In this document: positions 27,647-52,920 of the stretch, one piece after another
How positions within the stretch are numbered: the first letter of the stretch is position 1
Layout: each line of letters opens with the position of its first letter
Source of the DNA: an uncultured Actinomycetota bacterium
GTDB taxonomy: Bacteria > Actinomycetota > Actinomycetes > Mycobacteriales > SCTD01
DNA length: 64,000 bases
Assembly (NCBI GenBank): GCA_963761695.1
Contig: CAVXIB010000015.1
Location: forward strand, 91,807 to 155,806
Direction: 5' to 3'
Made by a program: the position numbers and the translations under genes
Notes under the pieces: generated by a model
What the model was told of the DNA's origin: nothing
The model's input: only the letters and a program-made list of their open reading frames with translations
The model's database searches: none

Positions 27647-28505
27647 GTGACGGCGACGATCCTCGACGGCAAGGCCACCAGCGCAGCAGTGCGCGCAGAC
27701 CTCGCGGAGCGGGTGACGGCGCTCGCGGCCCGCGGCGTCGTGCCGGGCCTCGGCACCGTGCTCGTCGGCGACGACATCGGCTCGTCGAAGTACGTCGGGC
27801 ATGAAGCACCGGGCCTGCGCGGAGGTGGGCATCGCGAGCATCGCGCGGGTGCTCCCGGGCAGCGCGACCCAGGCCGAGATCGAGGCCGTGGTCGACGAGC
27901 TGAACGCCGACCCCGCCTGCACGGGCTACATCGTCCAGCTGCCGCTGCCGCGGGGCATCGACACCAACGCCGTGCTGGGACGGATCGACCCGGACAAGGA
28001 CGCCGACGGGCTGCACCCGGTCAACCTCGGCCGCCTGGTCCTCGGCCAGGAGGCGCCCCTGCCGTGCACGCCGCGCGGCATCGTGGCCCTGCTGCGCGCG
28101 TACGACGTGCCGCTGTCCGGCGCGGAGGTCGTGGTGGTCGGGCGCGGTGTCACGGTCGGGCGACCGATGGGGCTGCTTCTGACCCGGCGCAGCGAGAACG
28201 CGACCGTGACCCTGTGCCACACCGGGACGAAGGACCTGGCGCAGCACCTGCGGGGCGCCGACGTCGTCATCGCCGCGGCGGGCGTGGCCGACCTCATCAC
28301 CGCCGACCTCGTCAAGCCGGGGGCGGCGGTGCTCGACGTCGGGGTGTCCCGGCGGGCGGACGGCACGGTGGCGGGCGACGTCGCCCCCGACGTGCGCGAG
28401 GTGGCGGGTTTCGTGGCACCCAACCCGGGTGGGGTGGGGCCGATGACGGTGGCGATGCTGCTGACGGCCGTCGTCGAGGCCGCGGAGCGGACGAGCAAGG
28501 GGTGA
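27647..28505 (+). pseudogene. folD: bifunctional methylenetetrahydrofolate dehydrogenase/cyclohydrolase, one frameshift as sequenced
   Basis: The GTG at 27647 gives [19 protein letters not shown]...[17 protein letters not shown]. An extra G in the run at 27797-27799 moves the frame into ORF 27801..28505 ([11 protein letters not shown]...YIVQLPLP...DADGLHP.NLG...CTPRGI...VVVGRG..VGRP...PGGVGPMT). Confidence 0.85.
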
Positions 28506-28604
28506 CGGTCGAGGCCGCGGAGCGGACGAGCAGGGAGTGACGGTCGAGGCCGCGGAGCGGACGAGCAGGGAGGGTCGAGGCCGCGGAGCGGACAGCGGGT
28601 GACG
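28473..28604. repeat. about 4 tandem copies of a 31-35-bp unit duplicating the folD 3' end
   Basis: The unit is GTCGAGGCCGCGGAGCGGACGAGCA[A/G]GG[G/A]GTGACG. Copies lie at 28473-28507, 28508-28542, 28543-28572 (truncated) and 28574-28604 (variant). Copy 1 is the true folD terminus ([10 protein letters not shown]). Confidence 0.85.
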
Positions 28605-28609
28605 GTCGC

Positions 28610-29284
28610 TCAGCCGGCCCTGCGCACCTCGCCGTCGGTGTCGGGCGGGATCGGCCGGATGATCCCGGCGCTGATGACCTCGTTCGCGAGGCGGCTGCGA
28701 CGGTTGATGCCCTCGGCGATCCGGAACTTCTGGTAGAGCCGCAACAGGTGCTGCTTGACGGCCGCCTCGGTGACGACGAGCTCCTCGGCGATGTCCCGGG
28801 CGGTGCCGGGCGCGACGAAGGCCTCGTGCTGCAGCGCGGGCCGGCACAGCGCCACCAGCACGTCGCGCTCGCGTCGCGTGAGGTCGGGCGCGGAGACGCG
28901 TCGCAGCTCGATCGTGTTCTCGCCGGACGCGGGAGCGAGACCACCGACCCGCGTGCGGGCCGACCCGAACGACAGGACGTCGCCCTCGAGCAGGATCCGC
29001 CTGCTGACCGGACGGCCGTTGACGCGGGTGCCGTTCACCGACAGGCCGAGGTCGGACACGTACAGGTGGCCCCCGCGCCGGACGATCTCCGCGTGCAGCC
29101 GCGAGACCGTCGGATCGGTGAGGCTGATGTCGACCCCGGGCCCCCGCCCGACCGTCGTCACGTCCGCATCGAGCGGGAAGGTCTCCGCGCTCTCGTCGAG
29201 TCGGAGATGGGGGGTGTCCACGGACGGGGTCCTCTCGCTGCCGGCATGCTGCCGCGGCGTTACCCCACCTGGCGTGACGCACAC
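28610..29284 (-). CDS. FHA-domain / LuxR-type HTH transcriptional regulator
   Basis: The N-terminal FHA domain reads TVGRGPGVDISLTDPTVSRLHAEIVRRGGHLYVSDLGSVNGTRVNG. The C-terminal LuxR HTH reads LTRRERDVLVAL...IAEELVVTEAAVKQHLLRLYQKF. The start may instead be the GTG at about 29221. Confidence 0.8.
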   Translation of the reverse strand: MCVTPGGVTPRQHAGSERTPSVDTPHLRLDESAETFPLDADVTTVGRGPGVDISLTDPTVSRLHAEIVRRGGHLYVSDLGLSVNGTRVNGRPVSRRILLEGDVLSFGSARTRVGGLAPASGENTIELRRVSAPDLTRRERDVLVALCRPALQHEAFVAPGTARDIAEELVVTEAAVKQHLLRLYQKFRIAEGINRRSRLANEVISAGIIRPIPPDTDGEVRRAG

Positions 29285-29629: not shown

Positions 29630-35203
<5,574 letters not shown>

Positions 35204-46570: not shown

Positions 46571-47800
46571 GTGCACATGTCATCGATGACGGACGCCTGG
46601 ACCCGGGCCCGCCGCAAGCGCCCGCTCCTGGACCACCTCGTCCGCACGGTCGGTCGCTACCAGGCCGACACCGGCGACCGGCTGGCCGCTGCGGTCACCT
46701 ACTACTGGTTCCTCTCGCTGTTCCCCATCGTGCTGCTGGCCATCTCGCTGCTCGGCTACGTCTACGGCGACAGCGCCGCCGAGAAGGTCCAGGACGCCCT
46801 CGGCTCCGCGCTGCCGAGCCAGCTGGTGGCCACCCTCGGCACGACGCTGGAGCAGGCGAAGGGGCCGGCCGGGGTGCTCGGCCTGCTGGGAACGCTCTAC
46901 TCCGGTCTCGGGTGGATCGATGCGCTGCGCGAGGCGATCCGCTCGGTCTGGCACCAGAGCGTGCTGGCCGGCAACATCGTCACCCGCAAGCTGTCCGACG
47001 TCGTCGTCCTGATCGGGCTGTTCGCGACGATCGGTGCCTCCGTCCTGACCACCGGGCTGGTCACCGGCTTCTCCGGAACGGTGCTGAAGGCGCTGGGCAT
47101 CCAGGAGAACCCGGCCGCCACGGTCTTCACCAGGGTGCTCGGTTACGGGCTCGCGCTGCTCGCCGACACCGCCCTGTTCCTCTACCTGTTCGCGCGCCTG
47201 TCCCGGGTGCGCAACCCGCTGCGGCGGCTGGTCGGCGGTGCGGTGTTCGGCGCGATCGGCTTCGAGGTGCTCAAGGTCCTGGGCGGCCTGTACGTGGCCC
47301 GCAGCACCAGCAAGGGTGAGGCCACCTACGGGGCGTTCGCCGTCGTGGTCGGGCTGCTGCTGTTCCTCAACCTGGCCTCCCGCTTCCTGCTGCTGGCGAG
47401 CGCCTTCGTGGTCACCGCGCCCTACGACAGCGACGTCGCGCCGTCGGGCACCGCGTCCCGCGAGCAGGCCCGCCGGGCGGGCATCCCGGAGCACCTGGCC
47501 GACGACGACCCCGACGACCCGGCGCGGCTGCAGGAGGGCGGCGCCCCGACCCGGCTGCGGGCCGCGCTGCAGGGCCGGCTCCCACCGCAGGACGAGCCGG
47601 AGGGTCGGCCGGAGCCGGCCCTCGGGGCGCAGGATGCGGGCGGGGCCGCCGTGCCGTCGGGCGGGGCCGCCGGGCTGCCGACCGCAGGTGCGGTGCAGAC
47701 CGCGGCACGCGTGGTCGCGGGGGCCGGTGCGGTTCTGTTGGGCAGCGTGCTGCTGCACGCCCTCGGCACCCTGTGGCGGCTGGTCCGACGGGGGCGCTGA
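46571..47800 (+). CDS. YihY/BrkB-family membrane protein
   Basis: Motifs LAAAVTYYWFLSLFP and GAFAVVVGLLLFLNLASRFLLL are present with 6 TM helices. The C-terminal extension is long and disordered. Confidence 0.8.
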   Translation: MHMSSMTDAWTRARRKRPLLDHLVRTVGRYQADTGDRLAAAVTYYWFLSLFPIVLLAISLLGYVYGDSAAEKVQDALGSALPSQLVATLGTTLEQAKGPAGVLGLLGTLYSGLGWIDALREAIRSVWHQSVLAGNIVTRKLSDVVVLIGLFATIGASVLTTGLVTGFSGTVLKALGIQENPAATVFTRVLGYGLALLADTALFLYLFARLSRVRNPLRRLVGGAVFGAIGFEVLKVLGGLYVARSTSKGEATYGAFAVVVGLLLFLNLASRFLLLASAFVVTAPYDSDVAPSGTASREQARRAGIPEHLADDDPDDPARLQEGGAPTRLRAALQGRLPPQDEPEGRPEPALGAQDAGGAAVPSGGAAGLPTAGAVQTAARVVAGAGAVLLGSVLLHALGTLWRLVRRGR

Positions 47801-47825: not shown

Positions 47826-50400
47826 TCAGCCCCGGGGGCGCCAGGCGGGGGCCACCGCGCTGTCGACGGCCGGACGGGGTCGACGGGGCGGGGCGGCCGG
47901 CGTGGACGGCGGCTCGGCGGGTTCCGGCGGCGCGGCGGCGACCTCGGACGTCGCGGCGTCTGGCGTCGTGGCGTCTGGCGTCGTGGCGTCGGGCGTCGTG
48001 GCCCCTGGGGCCGTCGCCTCGGAAGTCGTGGCCTCGCCGGTGCGGGCCTCGGGCGTGGTGGCGCTGCCCCGCTCGCGGTGGAGACCTTCACGCACCGCCT
48101 CCTGCACGGCGTCGCGTACGAGGTCCTGCACGGTCGCGACCAGGCTGGACCTGACCTCGGCGACCACGGCGGCGGTGAGGTCACCGACCACGCCGGGCGG
48201 CAGCGTGGCCACCGGCGCCGGGGCGGCCTGGGCCTGTCGGGTCGCCTGGGCCGCCTGATCGGCGGCCGCCGTCTGACCGGCCCGCAGCTCCTGCAGGGTG
48301 GCGGCGGTCCGGCGCAGCAGGTCCGCATCGGGCAGCTGGTCCAGGATGCGGGCGGTCATGGCGGCGACGCCCTGCACCACCGCCTCGAACCCGTCGGCGA
48401 CACCGGTCTCGAAGCTCTCGACCTGCCCGCGCACCGCGGCCACCTCGTCGCGGGTCCGGTCGACCGAGGACGACAGCGGGGGCAGGCTCCCGACCCGCTC
48501 GTGACCTGCCGACCCGCTCGTGCACCTGGCCGACCTGCTCGTGCACCTGGCCGACCTGGCCGCGCACCTCCTCCAGGGTCCGGGTGAGGCCCTCGGGGTC
48601 GACCGACGGACGTGACTCCACCCGGTCCAGCTGCGTGACGAGCCCGTCCAGGAGAGCCTTCGTCTGCATCGTGGCCTGCTGAACGTCCTCGCGCCGAGCA
48701 GCGTCCTCGACGGCCGCCCGCACCTCGGACACGGCAGGGGACAGGGTGCGCTCCAGGGTCGTCTCCACGGCTGACACCACCGCCTGGGTGACCGCGACGT
48801 CGGAGGGCAGGCCGCCGATCTGGTCGCGCAGTGCGCCGAGCTGGTCGGTGAGGGAGCCGATCTGGTCGTGCAGGGCGCCGAGCTGGGTGGCGACGCCGGA
48901 CAGCTGCCCGGTGACCCCGCCGAGCCGGTCGTGGACTCCGCCCACGTGACCGTGGACGCCGTCGACGTGCTCATGCAGGCTCCGCACGGCGGTCTCGAGC
49001 TGCTCGGGCGCCAGGAGGGGACGGTCGGCCAGGTCGCGGACCTGGTCGGCGACGCCTTCGACGGCCGCCCGGTCGGGAAGGGCGTCGAGCCGGCCGGCGA
49101 CGGCGTCGAGCGCGGCGCGGTCGGGGAGGGCGTCGAGCCGGCCGGCGACGGCCTCGACGACGCCGGTGGTCTGTGCGTCGAGGTCGGCGCGCCCGGGCAG
49201 GTCGCGGACCTGCTGGGCCAGGGCGTCGAGCGCGGCGCGGTCGGGGAGGGCGTCGAGCCGGCCGGTGACCGCGTCGAGCGCGGCCCGGTCGGGGAGGGCG
49301 TCGAGCCGGCCGGTGACCGCGTCGAGCGCGGCGCGGTCGGGAAGGGCGTCGAGCCGGCCGGTGACGGCCTCGACGACGCCGCTGGTCTGCGCGTCGAGGT
49401 CGGCGCGCCCGGGCAGGTCGCGGACCTGCTGGGCCAGGGCGTCGAGCGCGGCCCGGTCGGGAAGGACGTCGAGGCGACCGGTGACCGCGTCGAAGGCGGC
49501 GCGGTCGGGAAGGGCGTCCACCCTCCCAGACAGGTCACCGAAAGCCGCCCGGTCCGGCAGCTGCTCGAACCGGGTCAGCAGCGCGCGCACGGACTCGGCG
49601 ACGGCGTCGAGCGCGGCGCGGTCGGCGACCGCCTCGAGCGAGGTGGACAGCGTCGCGGCGACCGCGTCGGTGACGGCTGCGGCGGTGCGTTCCAGGGCGG
49701 CCCGGTCAGGGAGGGCCTCGGTGCGGTCCAGGAGGGTCGCGACCGGCGCGCCGACGTCGTCACGGGACGCCAGCTCGCGCAGCTGCTCGGCGAGGGCGGC
49801 GAGGTCGTCGCGCAGCGCATCACCGGCGGCGCGCGAGCGGAGCTCCGCGAGGGGCTCGTCGAATCGGTCGAGGCGGGCGTCGAGCGCCTGCACCACGTCG
49901 CCGACGACGGCACCGACGTCCGAGGTCTGCGGCAGCGCCCGGACCGCCGTGACGAGCTGGTCGACCCGGGGAAGCAGCGCGTCGGTGCCCGCGCGACCGC
50001 CCAGCTCCTGGACCGCCCGGGCCAGGGCATCGACCTGGTCGGTGGAGGCGGTACCCGACAGCTGCTCCTCGAGCCGCTCGAGCGGAGCGGAGAGGGCCTG
50101 CACGACGCCGGCCGCCGCGCGGGAGGCGCTCTCGGCGTCCTGCAGTCCCGACAGCCGCTCGTCGACGGCCGACAGCGCTGTCCGCAGCTCGCTCAGGCCG
50201 GCGTCGACGACGTCGGTGGCGGTGGCGTTCCGCACCTGGCTCGCGACGTCGTCGAGGCGATGGCCGAGGTCGGCCAGGGTCTCGGTCAGCGCCCGCTGCT
50301 CGGACACCTGGTCCTGGACGGCCTGCGACAGCAGGCTGCGCAGACGGGCCTCGGCCGCGGACGGGCCGGACTCGGCGGGCGGGACGTCGGACGGCACCAC
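47826..50400 (-). pseudogene. about 858-aa Ala/Asp/Leu/Val-rich tandem-repeat protein of unknown family (frame break inside one repeat)
   Basis: ORF 48181..50400 (739 aa) joins the frame ending at 47826. The junction near 48500-48515 lies in a GQVHE(Q/R)V repeat, where one copy lacks 2 nt relative to its neighbours. No signal peptide or TM helix. Repeat classes are detailed in the findings. Confidence 0.7.
49054..49533. repeat. intragenic nested tandem repeat: 48-bp units within a 216-bp higher-order unit
   Basis: The 48-bp unit is GGCGTCGAGCGCGGCGCGGTCGGGGAGGGCGTCGAGCCGGCCGGTGAC. Copies lie at 49102, 49222, 49270, 49318, 49438 and 49486, with partial copies before 49102. They are interleaved with a duplicated 72-bp block at 49150-49221 and 49366-49437. 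Confidence 0.85.
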
Positions 50401-51863
50401 GGGTGGGCTCCTCGCTCGGGCGGGGCCGGCGGGAGCGCGACCCGCCTGCAGTCTTCCAGTGCGGACCGGCGTGGTGGGAGCCGCCCGGCGTCGGCGGTCC
50501 GGCTAGCGGCGGGGAACCGTCCGCCGCCCCGGGTCGGTGGGCGCGCGGGGTGAGGGTGCGGGGCGCCCGGAACCGGTCGGGCGGCCGGTGGCAGCGGGCT
50601 GTCGCAGGTCGCTGGAGGAGCGCGGTCGGGCCGTTGCCGAGCCCCGGCTGCCGCGGGGCCCCGTCCGGCCGGGGGGCGGCCGCGGCTCCCGGTGCCTCCG
50701 ACCCCGGTGCCGCCCACCCCTGTACCGCCCACCCCGGCGCGGGCCGCGGCACGTCGGGCCGACCGGGCCAGGACCACCTGACGCCGGCGACGCACCAGCA
50801 GGATCGCGCCGAGCAGGGCGCCGCCGCTGAGGGCCTGCACCGGCAGCCCGGCCCCGTCGGAGGGGGCGGCGGCGGGCGCCCCGACCGGACGGCGCACGAC
50901 GGCCTGGTCCACGGCGGGGGCGGGGGTCACGGGGTCTGCGGCCGGGTCCACGAGCGTGCCGATGGGCTGGGTCCCGCGGGACACCGCGGCGAAGCCCCAG
51001 TCGAGCAGGGCCGCCGCCTCCACGTGCACCCGCGGCTGCGTGCGCATGAGGGTGACCAGCAGGGTGTGGCCGTTGCGGGTGGCTGCGCCGACGAAGCTCG
51101 CCTTCGCCCGCGTCGTGTACCCGTTCTTGATGCCCAGGGCGCCGTCGTAGGTGGCGAGCAGCTTGTTGTGGTTGACGGTGGCGATCCGCTTGCCGCCCGG
51201 TCCGCTCACGCTCCCCCGGCGGGTCGAGACCCAGCGCCGGAAGTCCGGCGAGGCCATCCCCGCCCTTGCCAGCAGGGCGAGGTCGTAGGCGGAGCTGAGC
51301 TGCCCGTCGGCGTCCAGGCCGCTGGGGTTGACCGCGTGCGTGTCCAGGGCCTGCAGGCGGGTGGCCTCGGCGTTCATCGCCTCGATGGCGGCCGGACCCC
51401 CGGCGCCTCGGGCGAGGGTCATGGCGACGTCGTTGCCCGAGACCATCATCATCGCCTGGAAGAGCTCGTCGACGGGGTAGCCCACCCGCTCCACCAGCCC
51501 GACCTTGCTCCCGTCGACGGCGACGTCGTCGAACTCCGGCACGAGCTTGCGGTCCGGGGGCAGCAGCGGCGCCAGGGCCACGGCGGTGAGGATCTTGAGC
51601 GTGCTCGCCGGGGCGAAGCGCCCGTGGGCGTTCTTCGCCCCCAGCACCTGACCGGTGTCGAGGTCGGCGACGAGCCAGCCCTGGGCCACGACCTCCTTCG
51701 GGACCGCCGGGGCGCCGAGGCCGAGGACCACGCCGGGGCCGCCGAGCTGCGCGCCGCCGACGACGTCGACCTGCGCCGAGGCGGGCGGAGCGAGTGCCGC
51801 GGGGACACCGAGCAGGGCGATCCCGAGGAGGGCGGCGGTCAGGGCCCGGAGCGCGGTCGTCAT
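50286..51863 (-). CDS. D-alanyl-D-alanine carboxypeptidase (S11, PBP5/6-type); 3' end uncertain
   Basis: From M40 of ORF 50286..51980 (MTTALRALTAALLGIALLG signal peptide). It has SxxK (ASTLKIL), SGN (VSGNDVA) and KxG (KNGYT) motifs and a C-terminal TM helix followed by RRRR. The last 150 or so codons are Arg/Pro-rich and overlap the next gene, so the real stop may be earlier. Confidence 0.8.
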   Translation of the reverse strand: MTTALRALTAALLGIALLGVPAALAPPASAQVDVVGGAQLGGPGVVLGLGAPAVPKEVVAQGWLVADLDTGQVLGAKNAHGRFAPASTLKILTAVALAPLLPPDRKLVPEFDDVAVDGSKVGLVERVGYPVDELFQAMMMVSGNDVAMTLARGAGGPAAIEAMNAEATRLQALDTHAVNPSGLDADGQLSSAYDLALLARAGMASPDFRRWVSTRRGSVSGPGGKRIATVNHNKLLATYDGALGIKNGYTTRAKASFVGAATRNGHTLLVTLMRTQPRVHVEAAALLDWGFAAVSRGTQPIGTLVDPAADPVTPAPAVDQAVVRRPVGAPAAAPSDGAGLPVQALSGGALLGAILLVRRRRQVVLARSARRAAARAGVGGTGVGGTGVGGTGSRGRPPAGRGPAAAGARQRPDRAPPATCDSPLPPAARPVPGAPHPHPARPPTRGGGRFPAASRTADAGRLPPRRSALEDCRRVALPPAPPERGAHPWCRPTSRPPSPARPRPRPVCAACCRRPSRTRCPSSGR

Positions 51864-51933
51864 GGTCGGGCGACCGTACTGCCGCAGGAGCCGGGCGCCA
51901 GGCGGCGCGCCGCGCCCAGGACGGCGCTGAGGC

Positions 51934-52920
51934 TCAGGGCGCGGTCGCGTCCGCGCCCGTCGAGACGCGGCGGTCGTCACCCATGCGGACCCCCAGCGCC
52001 GGCTTGCTCTGCTCCTCGGCGACCACGTGCGGAATCTGCAGCAGCCGCAGCACGGTCACCAGCACCAGGCCGCCCACCAGGTTGCCCACCGCGGCGAGCG
52101 AGGCGGTCTGGGCCCAGTCGGCGTACCCGAACGGTGCCGCGCCCGTGTGCAGCGCGGCGAAGATCAGCAGCGAGTTGACGACCGCATGGTTGAGCTGGGC
52201 CCCCGCGAGCAGGAACCCCCCGGTGACCGCGGGCACGAGCTTGAGGCCCGGCGACTCGGTGCTGTGCTGCATCCACGTCATCAACGTGATGACGGCCCCG
52301 CCCAGGACCGACAGGCTGAACGCCCGAAGGCCCAGACCCAGGTCGATGTAGAAGCCACCCGCCTTGATCGCCGTCTCGGCGAACTGCGGGAACCCCTGCA
52401 TGAGCACGAGCGTGAAGACCCAGCCCCCGGCGAGGTTCGCGGCGAACGTGACCAGCCACAGGCGGGGGAGCATGCGGAAGCGGGCCTGCCGCGCGACCAC
52501 CGTGGTGACCGGCACGAGGAAGTCCTCGGTGAACAGCTCGCTCTTGGCCAGGCTCAGGGCGATGAAGCCGACCGTGAAGGCCAGGCCGGCGAGCAGCACG
52601 CTCCCGGTCTCGTGCTCGACGAGCAGCAGGGCGAGGACACCGGTGCCGACGTCGATGCCGCCGAGCAGACCGGTCGACAGCAGCGGCCAGGTCTTGCGCG
52701 ACAGGCGACGGCGACCCTCGTCGACCGAGCGGAGGAAGGCCTCCTCGATCTCGACCTCGGCCACCCCGCGCTCGGAGGCCGGGTCGGACCCGACCCCTGG
52801 GCGCTCGGACTCCTCCGGGCGCGAGGTGTCCGGGCCGTCGCCGTCGCCGTGGGTCTCGGTGTCGTCCGGGCTCTCGGTGTCGTCCGGGGCGGTCCCGGGC
52901 TCCTGCGTCGTGCCGGCCAC
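51934..52920 (-). CDS. formate/nitrite transporter (FNT) family protein
   Basis: Six TM helices with LSLAKSELFTEDFL and AGAQLNHAVVN motifs. The N-terminus is acidic and disordered, and the start is uncertain. Confidence 0.8.
   Translation of the reverse strand: MAGTTQEPGTAPDDTESPDDTETHGDGDGPDTSRPEESERPGVGSDPASERGVAEVEIEEAFLRSVDEGRRRLSRKTWPLLSTGLLGGIDVGTGVLALLLVEHETGSVLLAGLAFTVGFIALSLAKSELFTEDFLVPVTTVVARQARFRMLPRLWLVTFAANLAGGWVFTLVLMQGFPQFAETAIKAGGFYIDLGLGLRAFSLSVLGGAVITLMTWMQHSTESPGLKLVPAVTGGFLLAGAQLNHAVVNSLLIFAALHTGAAPFGYADWAQTASLAAVGNLVGGLVLVTVLRLLQIPHVVAEEQSKPALGVRMGDDRRVSTGADATAP

Follow-up and report, generated by a model that had tools for sequence, protein, structure and literature searches.

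Actinobacteria contain long, cytoplasmic α-helical rods of low complexity, with Scy, FilP and DivIVA (Wag31) as the examples, and the length of these rods varies between species. Another layout, namely a folded domain followed by a disordered linker and a conserved C-terminal peptide, is shared by FtsZ with its linker and C-terminal peptide, SSB with its tail tip and PopZ-like hubs. Here, a repeat-bearing gene is examined in a 64,000-nt stretch of DNA from an uncultured Actinomycetota bacterium (the window; contig CAVXIB010000015.1, positions 91,807 to 155,806). The gene lies on the minus strand at 47826..50400 and, once two missing nucleotides are restored, encodes 858 aa without interruption. 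The safest statement is that its product is a cytoplasmic, fast-evolving helical protein of an undescribed actinobacterial family. The role proposed for it is that of an elongated, length-variable structural scaffold or tether, to which a probability of roughly 0.45 is attached.

The evidence for the family begins at the N-terminus. Around two dozen of the weaker profile-search matches align with the extreme N-terminus of the query at their own N-termini, and a profile search with the family alignment returned about 120 members, every named one of which is a 'hypothetical protein' (for example WP_238499663.1, WP_155336798.1 and WP_326819930.1 in RefSeq) or carries an obviously spurious automatic name. 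The members come from metagenome-assembled genomes (MAGs) labelled Frankiales, Mycobacteriales or Actinobacteria, including soil MAGs, and from cultured Streptosporangium, Herbidospora and Acrocarpospora. Those aligned share an invariant N-terminal R..L.SRA...Q..EQR, a helical middle, a helix with an invariant H.D.A.L.LA....RRR and a Pro/Ala/acidic low-complexity tail, which most but not all of the family possess. The N-terminal helix is found in the first ~60 residues as R..LLSQAVQDQVSEQR, R..LLSRAVEEQ.SEQR or R..LL[SA]RA[VA][EQ][ED]Q.[SNY]EQR, and a hidden Markov model (HMM) of this motif block (45 residues, built from 85 family members) scores the window protein at 37.0 bits over aa 19-59 (RLRSLLSQAVQDQVSEQRALTETL..., 50224..50346, minus strand). 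By comparison, 200 shuffles scored at most 5.9 bits and matches away from the N-terminus in other proteins at most 8 bits. An hhalign comparison of the window subfamily with the family profile gave a probability of 99.2% (E 3e-19) over aa 4-210, the first ~260 columns. Furthermore, 58 of 102 family members, versus 9 of 126 other profile-search matches, have a G-[LV]-H-[DE]-R-[LV] motif, of which the window protein carries four copies at aa 474-514. On these sequence comparisons, the N-terminal domain of the window protein is homologous to that of the family, and the protein is a divergent, repeat-expanded member.

Whole-length HMM scores were rejected as a test of membership, as with filters off other profile-search matches equalled the score of the window protein. 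Coiled-coil composition inflates such scores, and membership was therefore rested on the N-terminal motif-block HMM. The same inflation by heptad arrays is seen with the window protein as query in P0003 (1450 aa), the top match outside the window's subfamily (E 3.6e-28), where long SGLSGRIDTLSGRV-type heptad arrays drive the match; its N-terminal part gives a phage-tail-like impression on reading of the sequence.

Three close relatives of the window protein are present among the matches listed: P0001 (783 aa, intact), P0002 (818 aa, with an out-of-frame middle, encoded on the contig referred to as L002) and L001, a locus in a soil Actinomycetota MAG. A scan of a genome collection found at least one orthologous locus, no further full-length orthologue was recovered by an exhaustive HMMER search of 1.84 billion representative proteins, and a word-indexed homologue search returned two relatives with the full protein and none with its N-terminal 229 aa, low-complexity words having probably swamped the candidate list. 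The gene order sdhAB - focA - dac - gene - yihY (convergent) - ligT - trpS is common to the window, L001 and L002. Proteins flanking the gene are 71-97% identical to those of L001/L002, compared with 37-42% for the repeat protein where it can be aligned; the protein diverges rapidly and its middle varies in length. The parts conserved among orthologues are the ends, including an N-terminal MVPSDVPP common to all, and the blocks PRxDxLxTAVxALPQTxD, RGQVxxxExGxxDGxxxVVQGxA and RPAVxxxVAP. One subfamily-conserved block, PRVDQLVTAVRALPQTSD (aa 144-161, 49918..49971, minus strand), is mostly invariant in the window/L001/P0001 alignment, and another (aa 651-700, ...AVRGQVESFETGVADGFEAVVQGVAAMTARILDQLPD..., 48303..48452, minus strand), which lies beyond the frameshift described below, is kept in L001 and P0001 and has a G+C content at third codon positions (GC3) of ~0.95.

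Recent tandem duplications have lengthened the middle of the window protein, and the arrays were detected by Tandem Repeats Finder (TRF). One is a Pro-punctuated array of the 16-aa unit LPDRAALDAVTGRLDA (49033..49560, minus strand; TRF periods of 48, 168 and 216 nt), and 11 LP[DG]RA-initiated units can be listed at aa 230-456, mostly 16 aa apart with two 24-aa variants; degenerate copies continue upstream to ~49773. Within this region, a 216-nt (72-aa) super-repeat at 49067-49518 is present in 2.1 copies (93% identity, TRF score 799), the first 62 codons of which differ by 8 synonymous and 3 conservative non-synonymous codon changes, which points to translation of the array in this frame and to constraint on it. 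A His-rich stretch (HEHVDGVHGHVGGVHDRL) and G-x-[VL]-x-x-Q-[LI] heptads follow at aa 474-531 (48808..48981, minus strand), forming 21-nt arrays with a hydrophobic period of 3.5, and it is in this zone that the four copies of the family G-[LV]-H-[DE]-R-[LV] motif are found. A second 21-nt heptad array, GQVHE[QR]V (48490..48569, minus strand, 3.9 copies by TRF), can be read as three copies, and the Ala/Pro/Thr-rich, probably disordered tail contains an ATTP[DE] pentapeptide array (47942..48062, minus strand, 15 nt, 8.1 copies). The earlier note on this DNA, made from the sequence alone, had listed about nine 16-aa units with a 72-aa super-repeat present twice, the His-rich stretch with its heptads and three copies of GQVHE[QR]V, all of which are there. 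Its C-terminal TTPDA repeat is also present, although the 3-4 copies given were too few, as about eight degenerate ATTP[DE] copies exist; nor is the protein built almost entirely of repeats, since detectable arrays make up about a third of the gene and the remainder forms helices in which the capping motif recurs in degenerate form.

LP[DG]R[AE]D[LV][DE]-type segments number 13 in the window protein, 3 in P0001, 2 in P0002 and 0 or 1 in nearly all other relatives. Together with the presence of GLHDRL as a family motif, this suggests that the window arrays are amplified versions of pre-existing family segments. The expanded unit differs by orthologue at the same place in the protein: 16 aa in the window, 20 and 26 aa in L001 (ARADALQALAEDV...), ~13 aa in L002 (LLTDLARRTDVE) and VRGSVDA heptads in P0001. 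Array periods are 48/216/21/15 nt in the window, 60/78/81 nt in L001 and 38-39 nt in L002. Orthologues had been pointed to in the earlier note as a source of comparison for repeat number and for synteny with dac; the synteny is kept in L001 and L002, and the repeat arrays differ in each.

The open reading frame (ORF) list and the GC3 frame plot of the window agree on one minus-strand gene spanning 50400 to 47826, comprising 858 codons and a stop with 2 nt restored, with a GTG start at 50400 (or 50397). A Shine-Dalgarno-like GAGGAG lies 7 nt 5' of the GTG (50408..50413, minus strand), the start of the L001 orthologue is also preceded by a GAGGAGCC element and the N-terminus aligns with the starts of P0001, P0002 and L001. 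Mechanically, the minus-strand ORF from 50400 to 48181 gives 739 aa, and a further frame stays open as far as the stop at 47826-47828; the joining of these two frames into about 858 aa in the earlier note was correct. In the codon-position plot one coding frame runs from ~50420 to ~48560 and is followed by a frame shifted by one to ~47830, with the pattern typical of high G+C (third positions ~0.93, second positions ~0.5). The gene is a chromosomal one that codes for protein, and its repeats are genuine.

The switch of frame falls inside the 21-nt GQVHE[QR]V array (unit GGCCAGGTGCACGAGCGGGTC), in the third copy. Two copies read GGCCAGGTGCACGAG(C/G)(A/G)GGTC, while the third reads GGC-AGGT-CACGAGCGGGTC and is 2 nt short, which, with the GC3 plot, places the frameshift at 48492..48510 (minus strand). 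The break consists of two single-base losses within one unit and copy number is not involved. The units of both the window and L001 arrays are multiples of 3, and slippage of whole units would keep the frame; an assembly (consensus) error in a difficult repeat is therefore favoured as the probable source, and a recent genuine mutation is the less probable source. Similar breaks occur in the relatives. L001 switches frame two times over ~100 nt of its 60-nt repeat array (L001 11010-11075), and P0002 leaves the frame and then regains it. The assembly containing L002 (ENA ERZ25039498 contig_13745) is generally indel-rich, since focA, dac and an FAD oxidoreductase are each split over two frames when compared with the window proteins; gene calls for the family in such assemblies, P0002 among them, include out-of-frame segments.

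At the C-terminal end, the family helix reads ...H[VI]DEAVLALAEALLRRR, with H, D, L, A, E, L, L and R invariant in A5, and the spacing between the N-terminal motif and this C-proximal helix is 130-410 aa across the family. Its possible counterpart in the window protein is GVVGDLTAAVVAEVRSSLVATVQDLVRDAVQEAVREGLHRERG (aa 737-779, 48066..48194, minus strand), which may match the family ...HVDEAVLALAEALLRRR helix, the similarity being weak. Most aligned members end in [KR]3-PWWRP-[GS]-[GD]; P0027, for example, has the tail GRPAVTTSLAPRP...KRRPWWRPGG, and [KR]3PWWRPGG ends are found across the family. The 79-aa Ala/Pro/Thr-rich tail of the window protein ends in ...RRPRPAVDSAVAPAWRPRG, a basic peptide containing Pro and Trp (47829..47885, minus strand), with RPAV(D/T)(S/T)xVAP kept in L001, P0001 and P0002. 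Set side by side, the terminal peptides are KRRPWWRPGG (family) and PRPAVDSAVAPAWRPRG. A Gly-Gly terminus acting as substrate of the adjacent E1-like MoeZ was considered and rejected, as the last two residues are GD, SD or SG in many members and RG, PR or RS in the window subfamily. A 'PWWRP' at window position 30324 lies in a non-coding frame and was attributed to chance.

Three subfamilies can be separated by their surroundings. Subfamily A, the only one yielded by the metagenome scan, lies in the order Ku - PepS51 - alpha/beta-hydrolase - X - CsbD - MoeZ - Ogt-like - AdnAB (X being the family gene) at all 20 loci examined where the contig is long enough. The tail-less subfamily B, brought to light by the N-terminal motif-block HMM and annotated as hypothetical in cultured Streptosporangium, Herbidospora and Acrocarpospora, has ...DRMRELLARAAQD.V.EQR and, at its extreme C-terminus, LEETMLALAEALLRP.R, and is located (L025-L027) between a THUMP-like methyltransferase and a tsaD-rimI-tsaB-sortase-tsaE cluster near groESL. 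Some subfamily B members carry the UniProt automatic name 'Chromosome partition protein Smc', which is unsupported. The focA-dac-X-yihY-ligT-trpS locus of the window, L001 and L002 is unlike either setting, which supports a separate, third subfamily. A functional link to the alpha/beta-hydrolase neighbours was rejected because they are not conserved across subfamilies. The gene call for P0187 (1059 aa, subfamily A) joins alpha/beta-hydrolase domains to the family protein, placing the N-terminal motif at aa 365; this is either a true fusion or a lost stop codon, the hydrolase being a separate upstream gene at other loci.

At the window locus, the upstream gene on the same strand encodes a D-Ala-D-Ala carboxypeptidase, dac (50286..51980, minus strand; Peptidase_S11, Pfam 118.9 bits), and the convergent downstream gene a YihY/BrkB-family membrane protein (46571..47800, plus strand; Virul_fac_BrkB, Pfam 151.8 bits), whose stop is 25 nt from that of the repeat gene, an arrangement that recurs in L001 and L002. 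The dac ORF has a ~110-aa Arg/Pro-rich tail (50286-50800, minus strand) that overlaps the repeat gene by 115 nt. The earlier note was right to place dac upstream on the same strand, but the overlap with the start of the repeat gene, although mechanically there, is probably an artefact: another frame of the dac tail ends ...GRRTVPRR-TAG at 50505-50503, like the L001 dac end RRRVPRR-TAG, and this TAG is probably the true stop. The comparison suggests a second indel of the window assembly in the dac tail and a real intergenic gap of ~100 nt. A promoter/terminator scan found nothing, including any terminator-like site between dac and the repeat gene, and an Rfam search of the window gave no match. 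The window is ~75% G+C with uniform composition, and no island is seen at the locus. Elsewhere in the window just one tandem array has a TRF score of at least 120, a 35-nt array at 28473-28608 (4.1 copies, 88% match, TRF score 201). The unit, the length of which is no multiple of 3, corresponds to the last ~11 codons and stop of a folD-like ORF (27801-28505, plus strand), the copies running downstream into the convergent gap before the ORF at 28610-29284 (minus strand).

Several properties bear on the form of the protein. It is acidic (137 Asp/Glu versus 80 Arg/Lys), with a single Lys and few aromatics, and no transmembrane-like or signal-peptide-like hydrophobic segment was found in its 858 aa (maximum 19-residue Kyte-Doolittle mean 1.36); the earlier note had likewise reported no transmembrane helix and a composition dominated by Ala, Asp, Leu, Val, Arg and Gly, and both descriptions hold. 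By Fourier analysis, aa 470-640 have a coiled-coil-like hydrophobic period of 3.5, and the 16-mer zone gives harmonics of 16. The large hydrophobic residues of the main 16-mer (L7, V10 and L14) span no more than 60 degrees of the helix, and its hydrophobic moment is only 0.20; such a narrow Leu/Val stripe with a low moment resembles helix-helix packing, not a broad lipid-binding face. An AlphaFold2 (AF2) prediction for residues 1-630, made from an alignment of four rows (P0001, P0002 and the two fragments of the window protein), is α-helical almost throughout: in the 16-mer zone helices of 11-14 residues are interrupted at every LPD, and longer ones span 465-529, 533-596 and 602-629.

The minimal family member P0233 (318 aa) gave a clearer AF2 prediction from a 75-sequence alignment. 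Two long helices (24-92 and 107-183) with a short turn between them are predicted at a per-residue confidence (pLDDT) above 90, the first bearing the N-terminal motif and the second the HVDEAVLALAEALL motif, and for the other 135 residues confidence is low and no secondary structure is assigned. As both motifs are conserved across subfamilies while the part between them varies, the two helices may form a hairpin 'clasp' into which variable helices are inserted.

Taken together, these features are consistent with an elongated scaffold or tether. Its helices would associate through their narrow Leu/Val stripes, giving self-association, and those at the two ends may pair up as a hairpin core. Rod length would be set by tandem duplication of the 16-aa helix-cap units and the heptads, and the flexible tail would present the terminal Arg/Pro/Trp peptide to a membrane surface or a partner. 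Peptides rich in Arg, Trp and Pro are known to partition into the interface of anionic membranes. An envelope-near role is the leading guess, since the gene of this lineage immediately follows that of a penicillin-binding carboxypeptidase; hairpin packing, self-association, tail docking and the envelope link are all inferred. A more elaborate proposal, a new cytoskeletal or tethering family with clasped terminal helices, a repeat-tuned rod as spacer or ruler and an Arg/Pro/Trp membrane anchor, working with the adjacent carboxypeptidase to pattern cell-wall synthesis, must be considered a long shot.

A number of observations weigh against the scaffold or tether. The role is drawn only from sequence and predicted structure, and the hairpin proposed for P0233 is drawn from per-residue confidence and secondary structure. 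The mean pLDDT of the window-protein model (first 630 aa) is 52, too low to read its fold or run a fold search, and a proline every 16 residues (aa 281-460) would be unusual for a continuous coiled coil. At the C-terminal end, the window VQDLVRDAVQEAVREGLHRERG aligns to the family C-proximal helix weakly (hhalign probability 27%), and the terminal PAWRPRG resembles PWWRPGG, being similar in character but a different motif. The three subfamilies occupy three stable, unrelated neighbourhoods, so that gene context gives no consistent functional partner, and the dac linkage, being limited to close relatives, is weak evidence for a functional connection.

Searches against described families returned no alternative identity. 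Pfam, NCBIfam, PHROGs, PADLOC and PDB sequence searches with the protein, its parts and its relatives gave coiled-coil-type noise only; a confident match to a characterised family, which in the view of the earlier note would have removed the novelty, was found in none of the five, and its statement that no family could be assigned is accurate for curated families, but an unannotated one exists. SMC/Rad50/ASRP-type NCBIfam models matched arm regions only, at 19-46 bits against cut-offs of 300-729, with no ATPase head. PADLOC and PHROG matches (LmuB, JetC, head scaffolding) were confined to coiled-coil parts at 17-33 bits, and the C-terminal part and P0233 had none. A Pfam scan of the window protein gave no match at E<=1 to the DivIVA domain (PF05103) or to Apolipoprotein (PF01442), for which relatives score 16-26 bits against a cut-off of 90. 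Baculo_PEP_C (PF04513, 39.2 bits, cut-off 38) and NPV_P10 (PF05531, 38.4 bits, cut-off 29.8) matched aa 470-551. The matches are confined to G-x-L-x-x-Q-L heptads, no individual NPV_P10 stretch is significant and the same models match many relatives and unrelated coiled coils; the signal was judged compositional and was not read as homology to baculovirus occlusion-body proteins. For the wider family, Foldseek found no match to the confident P0233 model in the PDB, cluster look-ups gave no names for the MAG proteins and literature searches on the terminal motif and related terms turned up nothing relevant. No curated model, solved structure or paper was thus found for the family, although bacterial proteins that combine a coiled coil or helical repeats with a disordered tail are a familiar kind.

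Other roles for an intact protein were weighed against the scaffold or tether. An apolipoprotein-, perilipin- or late embryogenesis abundant-like coat, in which Pro-punctuated helices lie flat on a lipid droplet, membrane or other hydrophobic surface in storage or stress protection, would explain the short tandem helices with Pro between them, and the weak Apolipoprotein matches of relatives (faint ones at subfamily B loci), the position of subfamily A genes after an alpha/beta-hydrolase and before CsbD and the PAF-AH-like lipase following one Streptosporangium locus could be counted in its favour. It is nevertheless unlikely, given the low moment and narrow L7/V10/L14 stripe of the main unit, a unit length of 16 aa and not 11 or 22, a strongly acidic protein with one Lys and few aromatics, Apolipoprotein scores far under the cut-off and a lipase neighbour that is not kept in Herbidospora/Acrocarpospora and is absent at the window locus. 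Helical-hairpin cores are common among type VII secretion substrates, and the P0233 prediction, the Pro/Thr-rich tail, reminiscent of wall-spanning linkers, and the adjoining dac and membrane-protein genes could together point to an exported or cell-surface repeat protein (adhesin-like, S-layer-like or a type VII substrate) beside a wall enzyme. This is very unlikely for a protein with no N-terminal signal peptide, transmembrane segment or sortase motif and no WXG100, LXG, PE or PPE matches, encoded where no secretion-system genes are found in window 44-54 kb or in the L001/L002 flanks. Still less probable is a coiled coil associated with the nucleoid or DNA repair and resembling SMC/Rad50 arms: the arms of ASRP, SMC, LmuB and JetC are indeed the best NCBIfam/PADLOC matches and subfamily A lies between Ku/LigD and AdnAB, but those matches reach 16-46 bits where NCBIfam requires 300-729 and cover coiled-coil arms only, the strongly acidic protein has no ATPase head, hinge or DNA-binding domain, and no repair genes occur at the window locus.

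The broken frame raises two further explanations. A decaying pseudogene, with a genuine frameshift and a locus that has lost its function in this organism, is as unlikely as the coat. In its favour are the broken frame of the window gene, the breaks within the repeat arrays of the L001 and L002/P0002 orthologues and an evolution of the protein much faster than that of its neighbours; against it, strong coding GC3 and conserved motifs continue downstream of the break, synonymous changes outnumber non-synonymous ones between repeat copies, P0001 is intact, L002 is rich in indels in general, with split focA, dac and oxidoreductase genes, and the window dac tail shows a second likely indel. A contingency (phase-variable) locus switched by repeat slippage is the least probable of all the explanations considered, even with frameshifts coinciding with repeat arrays in three assemblies, as the window and L001 units are multiples of 3 (15, 21, 48 and 216 nt; 60, 78 and 81 nt), making gain or loss of a unit in frame, and the window break leaves copy number unchanged, two single bases being lost from one unit.

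An apparent orphan has here become part of a recognisable family with diagnostic N- and C-terminal motifs. If the scaffold or tether reading is true, the family would join the small set of bacterial coiled-coil scaffold proteins and would offer a natural case of quick change in rod length by helix-unit duplication, with three close relatives carrying three arrays at the same place. The finding would not greatly surprise a specialist and opens no long-standing question. Members in cultured Streptosporangium, Herbidospora and Acrocarpospora make localisation and knock-out work feasible. The family also calls for caution in annotation, both because its repeats are often frameshifted in the metagenome assemblies examined and because of spurious names such as 'Smc', 'MotB', 'SlyX', 'prefoldin' and baculovirus PEP/P10.

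Among known systems, Scy, FilP and DivIVA resemble the window protein, on general knowledge, in being long, cytoplasmic, helical, low-complexity rods of a length that varies between species. The comparison, drawn in the earlier note, survives as no more than an analogy: the sequences are unrelated, with no DivIVA domain match and with no curated HMM in existence for Scy/FilP-type coiled coils, the main peaks of the Pro-punctuated window protein are 3.5 and harmonics of 16 residues with no hendecad-type or 51-residue period as in Scy/FilP, and a disordered tail with its terminal peptide sets the window protein apart. The exchangeable apolipoproteins (ApoA-I/A-IV/E, PF01442) also have tandem helical units with proline between them, and the earlier note had likened the arrays to theirs; this likeness is not supported, as the window unit is 16 aa as opposed to 11/22, its moment is 0.20, the protein is acidic and almost Lys-free and it gives no match to this Pfam model at E<=1. 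With Baculo_PEP_C and NPV_P10 the likeness is a nominal score at or above the curated cut-offs in the heptad region (aa 470-551), limited to the heptads and read as compositional. FtsZ, SSB and PopZ-type proteins have no homology to the window protein but are alike in layout by analogy, with a helical part that may self-associate, a long low-complexity linker and a short conserved terminal peptide suggestive of docking. The closest counterpart is the unnamed LLSRAVEEQ...LALAEALLRRR(...PWWRPGG) family itself. The window protein is the longest form found, with ~715 aa between the N-terminal motif and C-proximal helix versus 130-410 aa in subfamily A; the middle owes its expansion to 16-aa and heptad arrays of its own, the C-proximal helix and terminal peptide bear only a loose resemblance to those of the family, and the gene occupies the dac-yihY locus. 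In common with the family it has a homologous N-terminal domain at the same position, GLHDRL, a variable all-helical middle and a Pro/Ala-rich tail with a basic, Trp-containing end.

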